A stretch of 64,000 nucleotides of DNA from Minisyncoccota bacterium (lineage in GTDB: Bacteria; Patescibacteriota; Minisyncoccia; Phycocordibacterales; JAGLPS01). The translations under genes were made by a program, and so were the position numbers. How positions within the stretch are numbered: the first letter of the stretch is position 1; the number at the start of each line of letters is the position of its first letter. The notes below the pieces were generated by a model. That model was not told the origin of the DNA, did not search any database, and was given only the letters and a program-made list of their open reading frames with translations. This document shows, one piece after another, positions 4,204 to 5,692 of the stretch. The stretch covers positions 47,458-111,457 of the forward strand of contig JAGLPS010000002.1 of assembly GCA_023137185.1 (NCBI GenBank), written 5' to 3'.

Positions 4204-4776
4204 ATGGAAAAAAACCGAGGATTCACCCCGTTAGTAGAAGAAGGTCTCGTGCCCAAAGCATTTTCACAGAAAACACCTTTTTCTATTTTTAATATGTTCA
4301 TTTCAAAATTCTCCTCAACCAACATAGGGCACAAAAATGCTAGACCGTCTTTCACTACGGGGTTCACACTCATTGAACTGCTTGTTGTTATCTCGATTAT
4401 CGCTTTCGTAGCCTCTATAGTTATGAGCAACCTAAATCTTGCGCGTAGGCGCGCAAACATTGCAAAAGCAAAATCAGAAGTGCGTACTCTTCTTCAGGTA
4501 ATTTTACGATATCAAATTGACAATAACAGCTGGCCAAGTCCGAGTAACATTGCTTCATTGGACGATTGGAATGCGTCCTGGAGCGATCCGTATATTAGCG
4601 CTATTTCTACTGATCCATGGGGGCAAAGTTACTTTTTTGACGGAGGGGCAAGCGAATGCGGATGGGGAAATACAGGTATTTGCTCAGGTGGTCCAAATAA
4701 GTCAATAGGCTCGTTCAACAATCCAAATATGCCTCTTGGTGACGATATTTGTATTCCAATGGACATATGTAAATAA
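4204..4776 (+). CDS. Type IV pilin-like protein with an unusually long (~53 aa) conserved leader before G|FTLIELLVV
   Basis: Class III signal motif TTGFTLIELLVVISIIA; Cys-rich C-terminus; the 5' ~190 nt are nearly identical to 5045-5235. Confidence 0.6.
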   Translation: MEKNRGFTPLVEEGLVPKAFSQKTPFSIFNMFISKFSSTNIGHKNARPSFTTGFTLIELLVVISIIAFVASIVMSNLNLARRRANIAKAKSEVRTLLQVILRYQIDNNSWPSPSNIASLDDWNASWSDPYISAISTDPWGQSYFFDGGASECGWGNTGICSGGPNKSIGSFNNPNMPLGDDICIPMDICK

Positions 4777-4796
4777 TAAATTAACGTAATTTTTGT

Positions 4797-5048
4797 ATGA
4801 GTGTAGTTCAATTTTTAGATGAAAATGAATTTGATTCAAGGTTAAAAAATTGTCCGAAGAAATATTCAGGACTTGTGAATCTTGTAATACGAATTGGTCT
4901 CGCGAAAGACGAGCAGAGTGCTAATAAGTTACTTCTTTTAATTACTGTTGTTCTCTTTGCACTATCAATTTTTGTTCTCTTTTCTTTTAATCAATCGCCA
5001 GAGCCGTTATCTCCGCAGGAAATACAGTCTTTTCAAGTAATACCATGA
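4797..5048 (+). CDS. Small membrane protein, paralog of 3948-4199
   Basis: IRIGLAKDEQSANKLLLLITVVLFALSIFVLF; its stop overlaps the start of the next pilin gene (ATGA). Confidence 0.45.
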   Translation: MSVVQFLDENEFDSRLKNCPKKYSGLVNLVIRIGLAKDEQSANKLLLLITVVLFALSIFVLFSFNQSPEPLSPQEIQSFQVIP

Positions 5049-5692
5049 AGAAAAACCGAGGATTCACCCCGTTAGTAGAAAAAGGTCTCGTGCCCAAAGC
5101 ATTTTCACAGAAAACACCTTTTTCTATTTTTAATATGTTCATTTCAAAATTCTCCTCAACCAACATAGGGCACAAAAATGCTAGACCGTCTTTCACTACG
5201 GGGTTCACACTCATTGAACTGCTTGTTGTTATCTCAATAATTGGCCTTTTGTCTTCTGTTGTTCTCACGAGTCTTAATACGGCGCGTCTAAAAGCAAAAG
5301 ACGGGCGCAGACTGTCCGATATGAAGCAAATTCGGATGGCCCTTGAGCTTTATCGCGACGCAAACGACCGATACCCAAGCCCGACTTCAGGTGATGGCGA
5401 TTGGGAGGAGAGTTATGAAGATGGGGGACAATTTATAGAAACTCTCGCGAATAACGGATATCTGCCGAATCCAATTGTTGACCCAATAAACAACACGTCG
5501 TATCGGTACTCGTATTATCGCTATGGCGCAGGGTCTTCTGGTTGTCCTTCTTCCCGCGGGAATTTTTACGTTATTGGCGTTAGAAATATGGAAACAACCG
5601 GCAATCCCCATCCCGCAAGTCCAGGGTGGTCGTGTCCAACTAGAAATTGGCAAGGTGAGTTTGAATGGGTGGCAGGAGCTTTTGAGCACTAA
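5045..5692 (+). CDS. Type IV pilin / GspG-like pseudopilin with the same long conserved leader
   Basis: MKKNRGFTPLVEKGLVPKAF...RPSFTTGFTLIELLVVISIIGLL; the mature part ARLKAKDGRRLSDMKQIRMALELYRDANDRYP is GspG-like. Confidence 0.6.
   Translation: MKKNRGFTPLVEKGLVPKAFSQKTPFSIFNMFISKFSSTNIGHKNARPSFTTGFTLIELLVVISIIGLLSSVVLTSLNTARLKAKDGRRLSDMKQIRMALELYRDANDRYPSPTSGDGDWEESYEDGGQFIETLANNGYLPNPIVDPINNTSYRYSYYRYGAGSSGCPSSRGNFYVIGVRNMETTGNPHPASPGWSCPTRNWQGEFEWVAGAFEH

Follow-up and report, generated by a model that had tools for sequence, protein, structure and literature searches.

The DNA analysed here, referred to as the window, is a stretch of 64 000 nucleotides (nt) from a Minisyncoccota genome of the Candidate Phyla Radiation (CPR)/Patescibacteria (assembly GCA_023137185.1, contig JAGLPS010000002.1). 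It carries three type IV pilin-like genes, termed copies 1, 2 and 3, whose leaders are interrupted by a palindromic DNA element (table 1). The window sequence corresponds to ENA ZHAN22-2 scaffold_70 and is also present in the NCBI metagenome-assembled genome (MAG) GCA_030634405.1 (Candidatus Paceibacterota). Further loci are labelled L001 (Wolfebacteria), L007 (the same scaffold, upstream), L009 (a second assembly) and L013, L015 and L016 (pilins from other metagenomes). The prepilin N-methyl/GFxxxE domain (PF07963 and TIGR02532, above cut-off) was located at residues 52–74, 52–74 and 58–78 of copies 1, 2 and 3, respectively. The sequence G↓FTL(I/V)ELLVV was read directly in them, the arrow marking the cleavage site of the prepilin peptidase PilD, and Gly(−1), Phe/Tyr(+1), Glu(+5) and a hydrophobic helix of about 20 amino acids (aa) are all present. 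A first-pass annotation of the stretch had described these genes (starting at 4204, 5045 and 48153) as sharing a leader of about 53 aa, as against 6–7 aa in the other pilins of the locus. The three genes were confirmed, with leaders of 53, 53 and 59 aa, and the other pilins were measured at 7, 8 and 12 aa. The leader itself is not continuous and was resolved into a canonical short leader followed by an insertion of 141 nt.

In all copies the insert is preceded by an ordinary short leader and the first two mature residues (MEKNRG↓FT, MKKNRG↓FT and MKHFNHFRRVAG↓FT). The 141 additional nt in each gene consist of a 137-nt palindromic element and a duplicated target; they are in frame, free of stop codons and add 47 residues before G↓FTL(I/V)E. 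The element has terminal inverted repeats (TIRs) of about 22 nt (CCCCGTTAGTAGAA... and ...TTCACTACGGGG), its left end CCCCGTTAGTAGAAGAAGGTCT corresponding to the right end CCCCGTAGTGAAAGACGGTCT in reverse complement. Copy 3 is identical to copy 1 at 126/137 positions within the element and at 24/34 just downstream. The 4–5-nt direct repeat on either side varies between loci and agrees within each locus: copies 1 and 2 have TTCA(C) and copy 3 has TTTA(C), in each case in keeping with the local Phe codon at both flanks of the element. The element terminates in ...ACGGGG, the last GGG of which encodes Gly(−1); Phe(+1) and Thr(+2) come from the duplicated target. Read together these give Gly-Phe-Thr, so the prepilin-peptidase site is rebuilt 3′ of the insert. 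The left junction, F-T-P-L-V-E, resembles the pilin's own F-T-L-V-E coding sequence. A minor pilin that lacks the insert encodes G-F-T-L-V-E at 49536–49553 as GGA TTT ACA TTA GTA GAG, and this contains the 8-mer TTAGTAGA, otherwise typical of the left end of the element; it may be a target resembling the inverted repeat, or a coincidence.

Table 1. Features of the window discussed in the text (TSD, target-site duplication; ORF, open reading frame).
Feature	Position	Strand	Description
Small predicted membrane protein, 5′ of copy 1	3948..4199	+	ORF, 83 aa
Pilin copy 1	4204..4776	+	ORF, 190 aa; GspG/T2SSG-like prepilin; PF08334, PF07963/TIGR02532; original leader MEKNRG, in-frame insert, G↓FTLIELLVV
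Homogenized block	4210..4394	+	184/185 identical to 5051–5235; only mismatch 4240/5081; read as gene-conversion tract
Element copy 1	4226..4362	+	137 nt, CCCCGTTAGTAGAAGAAGGTCT ... AGACCGTCTTTCACTACGGGG; direct repeat TTCA(C) at 4222–4225(6) and 4363–4366(7)
Small predicted membrane protein, 5′ of copy 2	4797..5048	+	ORF, 83 aa
Pilin copy 2	5045..5692	+	ORF, 215 aa; MKKNRG, insert, G↓FTLIELLVV
Element copy 2	5067..5203	+	TSD TTCA(C) at 5063–5066 and 5204–5207; sole difference from copy 1 at 5081
GIY-YIG mini-element	5713..6032	+	TIRs left ACCCATTAGTAGAATTTCAATTTG (5713–5735), right CAAACTGAAATCTCACTACGGGG (6010–6032); flanks TTAAC/TTGAC
Intergenic miniature element	6037..6131	+	TIR CCCTGTAGTGAGATTTGGCAT/ATGCCAAATTCTACTACGGGG; TSD TTGA(C); fold z −13.1
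Intergenic miniature element	13169..13300	+	Between rplO and secY; TSD TGAA
Intergenic miniature element	40453..40519	+	Directly 3′ of pilM stop codon; TSD TTTGA
pilD, prepilin peptidase, A24 family	47311..48156	+	PF06750, PF01478
Pilin copy 3	48153..48875	+	ORF, 240 aa; minor-pilin-like, first gene after pilD; MKHFNHFRRVAG, insert, G↓FTLVELLVV
Element copy 3	48193..48329	+	TSD TTTA(C) at 48189–48192 and 48330–48333

The insert is one member of a family of repeats. Its terminal 12-mer, CCCYGTAGTRRA, was counted 12 times across the window (1.0 expected) and a 20-mer version six times (0.14 expected). Three members in the window are intergenic, and a fourth intergenic member with its own target-site duplication (TSD) lies upstream on the same scaffold (L007:3610–3703). 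Genomes of GTDB, one per species, were scanned for both ends of the pilin-type element, and six intergenic matches of 133–149 nt were obtained, in Wolfebacteria, Saccharibacteria (two), Kaiserbacteria and two further CPR MAGs. Their interiors are unrelated, and each has a duplication of its own (e.g. TCAA, TTTG, TCAAA, CTTG or TATG). All copies of the family have the terminus CCCCGT(T)AGTRRA and imperfect TIRs of about 22 nt. The flanks match in at least 13 of 17 elements, as TTCA, TTTA, TTGA, TGAA, TTTGA, TCAA, TATG, CTTG, TCAAA or TTTG. The elements measure 67–150 nt, with seven ORF-less copies in the approximately 79 kb of this genome that was surveyed and copies in six other CPR genomes, and none contains a transposase gene. 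On the combination of TIRs, variable TSDs, small size, multiple copies and the missing internal transposase, the family was classified as MITE-like (MITE, miniature inverted-repeat transposable element). Scanning of IMG/VR with the TIR patterns gave no match, and Rfam covariance models had no match in 3400–6400 at E ≤ 1.

Nearly all of the 120 homologues that best match pilin copy 2 are 165–180 aa long with short leaders such as MIKNKG↓FTLIE, and about 99% of close homologues lack the insert. The conserved leader of the first-pass annotation is therefore not supported as a peptide feature of a pilin family; the peptide is under nucleotide rather than protein constraint. That annotation had also proposed a search for the leader in metagenomes. 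With the 48-aa insert as query, phmmer was run exhaustively against 1.84 billion cluster representatives and returned only two further genuine clusters, both of them pilins in which the insert occupies the same site; two other matches, P0003 and P0005, were discarded as low-complexity repeat proteins. Protein searches by word index, made with the 48-aa insert or the five-sequence alignment as query, gave no match, which reflects insensitivity of the index to short queries and not absence, since phmmer did find relatives. The DNA of both clusters (L013 and L015) contains the same element at the same codon. In L013 the pilin gene resembles copy 2 and lies between rpe and tkt. The pilin of L015 has as its positional orthologue the window gene 49515, which carries no insert; in the window the element occupies the neighbouring minor pilin, copy 3. 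A further pilin, P0083 (L016), has at that very position another member of the family, of 104 nt, with TIRs CCCCGTTAAAAAATC and CCCCGTTAGAAAATT and a perfect TTTA(C) TSD. It follows from the L015 and L016 cases that the same site has been occupied several times in different pilin genes, by at least two subfamilies. The nt added to pilin-embedded copies number 141, 138 or 108, all in frame. The long N-terminus of P0078 is a spurious upstream extension. In P0102 (L017:422–994) a 42-nt in-frame segment that lacks the TIRs of the family lies between two TTTAC motifs (KFTLLVNPKKKRIKG↓FTLIE); a tandem duplication, or a footprint at this junction, may account for it.

Taken together, the leaders of these pilins have very probably been invaded by MITE-like palindromic elements of a family that is widespread in CPR/Patescibacteria, and the identity between copies 1 and 2 is explained by local gene conversion. 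In the mechanism proposed, a family member would have integrated between the codons for Gly(−1) and Phe(+1)-Thr(+2) of an ordinary prepilin, M-K-K-N-R-G↓F-T-L-I-E, with duplication of the 4–5-nt target TTYA(C). The TSDs of the family (TTGA, TTCA, TTTA, TCAA and others) fit a TTYA(C)/TTNA(C) target, and uninserted pilins carry GGN TTY ACN at this position. Such an insertion would be survivable, being in frame, stop-free in one orientation and able to re-create Gly-Phe-Thr. Gly(−1) is the key determinant of prepilin-peptidase cleavage, and for this reason the whole leader of 53–59 aa, which would be cytoplasmic, is expected to be cut off by PilD at the second G↓F, leaving the mature pilin unchanged. 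The prepilin junction would thus be one of the few coding positions at which an insertion of this kind is nearly harmless. This tolerance, combined with the TTNA(C) target preference, is proposed as the best explanation for recurrence at the exact codon in several pilin genes; active targeting to the pilin site is possible.

Folding of the element was predicted for RNA and DNA. Element copy 1 folds at −37.9 kcal mol−1 as RNA (z −5.55) with a DNA z of −4.8, copy 3 has a fold z of −5.07, and all tested family members form long terminal hairpins with z between −2.5 and −13. In the alignment of five sequences, four of them effectively distinct, 92.5% of predicted-helix cells are paired, compared with 41–48% when partners are slid, and nine pairs change on both sides, compared with 0–3 for slid and 3.2 ± 1.4 for shuffled controls. 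Two U-A pairs have become C-G in L013 and one mismatch there has become a pair, and the same substitutions alter the peptide from PLVE to PSVE (L>S) and from FTTG to FTAG (T>A). The first-pass annotation had recommended dN/dS for leader and mature regions; for the insert it is 0.32–0.88, with dS of only 0.17–0.70, although in their mature domains the three copies of the window have diverged strongly or can barely be aligned. Stem covariation carried through amino-acid changes and dN/dS of this order at low dS indicate that selection acts mainly on the nucleic-acid palindrome. The earlier suggestion of a nucleotide-level element embedded in the leader was thus borne out by a sequence that is palindromic, bounded by TIRs, flanked by TSDs, a member of a repeat family and marked by compensatory stem changes.

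A hairpin of −37 to −45 kcal mol−1 some 20 nt past the start codon might also act as an RNA-level regulator that throttles or times translation, or serves as an RNase III target, and so sets the level of accessory pilins. The strong predicted structure (z about −5), the covariation in both terminal and inner helices and the fixed position relative to the start codon are in its favour. Any MITE is expected to fold in this way, however, intergenic relatives fold equally or more strongly without a coding context, and no Rfam model matched; regulation of this kind was judged unlikely.

The coding frame is protected nonetheless. Stop codons in the host frame number zero in each of the five distinct pilin-embedded copies and at least one in each of ten intergenic relatives, the other forward frames having two to four. 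The sole indel among the pilin copies spans 3 nt, and their orientation is the same throughout. These observations bear on a second alternative, that the 47 residues are a selected pro-peptide which chaperones the pilin, delays its assembly, targets it or regulates its processing by PilD, with nucleotide conservation as a secondary effect. The frame is open in all pilin copies with a single indel that is a multiple of three, dN/dS is below 1, some 20 residues do not vary among five sequences, and the known copies of the subfamily are all in pilins and in a single orientation. Against this, the L>S and T>A replacements follow compensatory stem changes, synonymous sites are constrained too (dS 0.17–0.7), and the TIR/TSD anatomy is common to intergenic, untranslatable relatives. 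Nor do about 99% of close homologues have the insert, and the L016 pilin carries at the same site another family member that encodes an unrelated peptide. A selected pro-peptide is accordingly given a low probability.

The first-pass annotation had also noted that an internal start codon, if used, would give a leader of normal length. Translation from the internal ATG (NMFISK; 4291, 5132 and 48258) would produce a leader of 24 aa and leave the upstream part untranslated. An in-frame ATG does occur in copies 1–3 and in L013, and some CPR pilin homologues are annotated with leaders of 20–31 aa. The internal ATG is nonetheless not conserved, being ACG in L015 and absent from L016, whose insert has no Met. 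The stretch between the original and the internal ATG is free of stop codons in all copies, as against two to four stops in the other forward frames, and the original ATGs of copies 2 and 3 retain their ATGA overlap with the upstream genes. As the internal ATG is not conserved and the frame is open from the original ATG in every copy, a start at the original ATG is the simplest reading, the objection is unlikely to apply, and internal initiation was considered the least probable of the alternatives.

It was also considered whether the inserted pilin genes are inactivated relics, either non-processable or non-expressed, whose frame is open by chance or because insertion was recent. An insertion of 47 aa beside the cleavage site could block targeting by the signal recognition particle or cleavage by PilD, and copies 1 and 2 lie within a junk-rich 2.7-kb insertion of the S10 operon. 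Six genes from at least four organisms, however, have intact mature domains of full length, the element remains in frame at about 75% nucleotide identity, and the C-terminal domain of copy 2 is still 60–68% identical to its homologues, so that inactivation, like the pro-peptide, is quite improbable. Two further ideas were rejected. An invertible, shufflon-like switch would place six stops in the pilin frame when the element is inverted, and no recombinase gene was noticed nearby; self-splicing or ribosomal bypass is unnecessary, as the open frame is conserved.

Several points weigh against invasion by a MITE-like element. The uninterrupted (empty-site) allele was reconstructed as AAAAACCGAGGATTCACACTCATTGAA, and exact searches of JGI metagenomes and GTDB genomes did not find the empty site of copies 1 and 2. 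Neither a transposition intermediate nor a presence/absence polymorphism was seen, and mobility is indicated only indirectly, by the occupation of different pilin paralogues in different organisms. The subfamily was seen in pilins only (five of five known copies), with none intergenic in the surveyed part of this genome, and a JGI metagenome scan for its right end was empty; a pilin-dedicated module is possible. Covariation extends to inner helices, beyond what recognition of the TIRs by a transposase needs, and it comes from four effectively distinct sequences. A dN/dS below 1 and the conserved open frame leave room for a role of the peptide. PilD cleavage, translation from the first ATG and the mobilizing enzyme were inferred.

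The near-identity of copies 1 and 2 calls for a separate process. The first-pass annotation had reported about 99% identity over some 190 nt with an abrupt end, and this agrees with the block in table 1, beside which identity falls to about 55%, with flanking 30-nt windows only 11–21/30 identical. Identity continues past the element into pilin sequence, for 12 nt upstream and 28 nt downstream, and then collapses; of 164 aligned residues of the mature domains 44 are the same, most of them in the N-terminal helix. Over 9.1 kb the second assembly (L009) differs from the window at one base, 5081, which is also the sole difference between copies 1 and 2. This pattern fits ongoing gene conversion between tandem cassettes, and mis-phasing of reads during assembly is a possible source of it. 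The repeat structure was recovered in independent assemblies from several samples, all of which carry the insert, so it is not an assembly artefact, and the pattern is far beyond chance. Conversion would be a later event, separate from the insertion, between tandem ‘small membrane protein + pilin’ cassettes and seeded by the shared element. Gene conversion as proposed in the first-pass annotation is thus supported for copies 1 and 2, on the spill beyond the element and the polymorphism between assemblies, and for these two only. Cassette exchange, its other suggestion, is not supported: the shared block is the constant 5′ end and not a variable cassette, and as the variable pilin domains are not exchanged there is no cassette system.

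A candidate for the mobilizing enzyme lies immediately downstream of copy 2. The only ORF of the mini-element at 5713–6032 (5740–6009, 89 aa) encodes a GIY-YIG nuclease (PF01541, E = 3.5e-18) related to the UPF0213 structure 1ZG2. In Wolfebacteria (L001:5919–6199) a 281-bp element is filled by an 85-aa GIY-YIG ORF, 51% identical to that of the window; the TIRs of this element, of 14 nt, and its TTGA(C) TSD are perfect, and a MITE lies some 60 nt away. Start and stop codons of the GIY-YIG ORFs abut or fall within the TIRs. The right end of the GIY-YIG element in the window is almost identical to the left end of the MITE at 6037, and the TIR of the L001 element is almost identical to that of the L016 pilin insert. 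These two cases suggest, from sequence comparison, that GIY-YIG and ORF-less members form an autonomous/non-autonomous pair, and the 85–89-aa nuclease is the best candidate for the putative mobilizing enzyme. No DDE transposase or parent insertion sequence (IS) was seen with the ends of the family. Two groups of GIY-YIG genes were set aside, namely the IMG/VR relatives L022 and L023, which are of the phage T5orf172 type without flanking repeats, and plasmid matches, which are ordinary YhbQ-like genes. In insertions in CPR rRNA genes, GIY-YIG ORFs have been described in non-group I/II insertions at scattered, poorly conserved sites, together with many ORF-less insertions of <200 bp (PMC11270868). 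We tentatively suggest, as a joint claim that we regard as possible rather than probable, a new class of mobile DNA. Its autonomous unit would be a TIR-bounded, TSD-making mini-transposon of about 280–320 bp that encodes only an 85–89-aa UPF0213-type GIY-YIG nuclease, with non-autonomous derivatives across CPR phyla. One lineage would be specialized for, or targeted to, the prepilin Gly-Phe-Thr codons and kept as a leader segment that is translated and then discarded, and the same family may account for the CPR rRNA insertions.

The genes upstream of the three pilins differ. Each pilin had been annotated as translationally coupled to an upstream small membrane protein, and this was found for copy 2, the start of which overlaps the stop of the small upstream ORF through ATGA; copy 3 overlaps the stop of pilD in the same way, and copy 1 lies 4 nt from its upstream ORF with no overlap. 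The two small membrane proteins are paralogues (32 of 83 residues identical), and the one at 3948–4199 matched no Pfam or NCBIfam family. Close homologues of copy 2 have the C-terminal motif SPGWSCP.RNWQ.EF.WV.G.FE and are single genes wedged into unrelated operons, as seen between the genes for the small and large NiFe-hydrogenase subunits, after a suf cluster, between rpe and tkt and in the S10 operon (L026:5001–5525, L027:4388–4924, L013:401–1096 and window 4204–5692).

Copies 1 and 2 are contained in a 2.7-kb block (3505–6239) that splits rplB from rpsS in the otherwise contiguous S10 ribosomal-protein operon and consists of palindromic repeats, the two cassettes, the GIY-YIG mini-element and one MITE. 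A second palindromic repeat family is found in 3505–3860 (TCTCTTTTGAAAAGC ... GCTTTTCAAAAGAGA; copies at about 3512 and 3750), with a tandem/hairpin motif, GGAGGTTGAACCTCCAAGTTGACCTCCAAGTTGA, at 3816–3850. In the NCBI MAG, contigs DAOWAV010000004.1 (L010 end, window position about 4381) and DAOWAV010000001.1 (L019 start, inside copy 2) break within the copy 1/copy 2 repeat, so that the intervening region is missing from that MAG, and two more short contigs terminate in the repeat-rich spacer directly past rplB. The rplN-rplX spacer shows a length difference of 36 nt (window 9100–9147 and L009:15909–15920), by which the called ORF changes from 39 to 134 aa. A conserved element of about 120 nt is present in three copies of 75–91% identity, at 2545–2670 (+), 17865–17975 (−) and 55600–55730 (+), with the hairpin GGAAACCCAGAGGTTTCC inside; the first and third end at or near a start codon (rplB and gatA), and the element looks like a shared 5′ leader/promoter module or another repeat family. 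A promoter/terminator scan gave no signal above shuffled expectation.

No description of this arrangement was found in the literature searched, and comparison was made with known systems. Type IVa pilin leaders have 5–7 aa and type IVb leaders 15–30 aa (TcpA, BfpA and CofA). The inserted pilins resemble the latter in having a leader far longer than that of type IVa that ends in Gly(−1); type IVb leaders, in contrast, are native and family-wide, whereas those described here have 53–59 aa, occur in about 1% of homologues and originate from a mobile element. To our knowledge they are the longest prepilin leaders. In REPIN-RAYT systems, REP elements accompany a single-copy HUH/Y1 transposase gene flanked by REP sequences, and REPINs make no target duplications. 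Dispersed intergenic short palindromes and a small nuclease gene bracketed by the same repeats are common to both, but here the enzyme is of the GIY-YIG type and TSDs are present. The closest analogue is provided by the Rickettsia palindromic elements (RPEs), palindromic repeats of about 100–150 bp that lie in frame in coding genes and are translated and tolerated (Ogata et al. 2000, summarized in PMC10969869). The family described here shares with RPEs a palindromic, in-frame, stop-free insertion in a protein-coding gene, presumably translated and tolerated as well. RPEs belong to Rickettsia and not to CPR bacteria and occupy permissive surface loops of many unrelated genes, and they are treated here as an analogue. 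In the pilins the hits fall repeatedly on a single codon position in one class of protein, the segment is probably cleaved, and there are clear TIRs, variable 4–5-bp TSDs and an association with GIY-YIG. Bacterial MITEs such as Correia, ERIC, RUP and BOX (PMC10969869) are likewise small, mostly intergenic and present in many copies, with TIRs, TSDs, variable interiors and hairpins; unlike the usual MITEs, the present family has no visible parent IS with a DDE transposase, and its only coding relatives carry the 85–89-aa GIY-YIG gene. The CPR rRNA insertions (PMC11270868) come from the same group of organisms and share GIY-YIG ORFs and ORF-less insertions of <200 bp, but they lie in rRNA genes and TIR/TSD anatomy is not described there, which makes kinship a lead only.

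An apparently exotic pilin leader is explained by these results as selfish DNA, and such ORFs should not be taken for a new class of pilin. The repeat family breaks CPR MAG assemblies, and the covariation of its hairpin illustrates that nucleic-acid structure can drive amino-acid sequence within a coding region. The prepilin cleavage junction emerges as a natural permissive site, in which the insert is translated and then probably removed while its own GGG end restores Gly(−1), and it offers a clean example of a mobile element and a host processing step that together can render an insertion in coding sequence nearly neutral. The TIR-flanked mini GIY-YIG gene is a candidate for the mover of such elements in organisms where hardly any transposases have been recognized.

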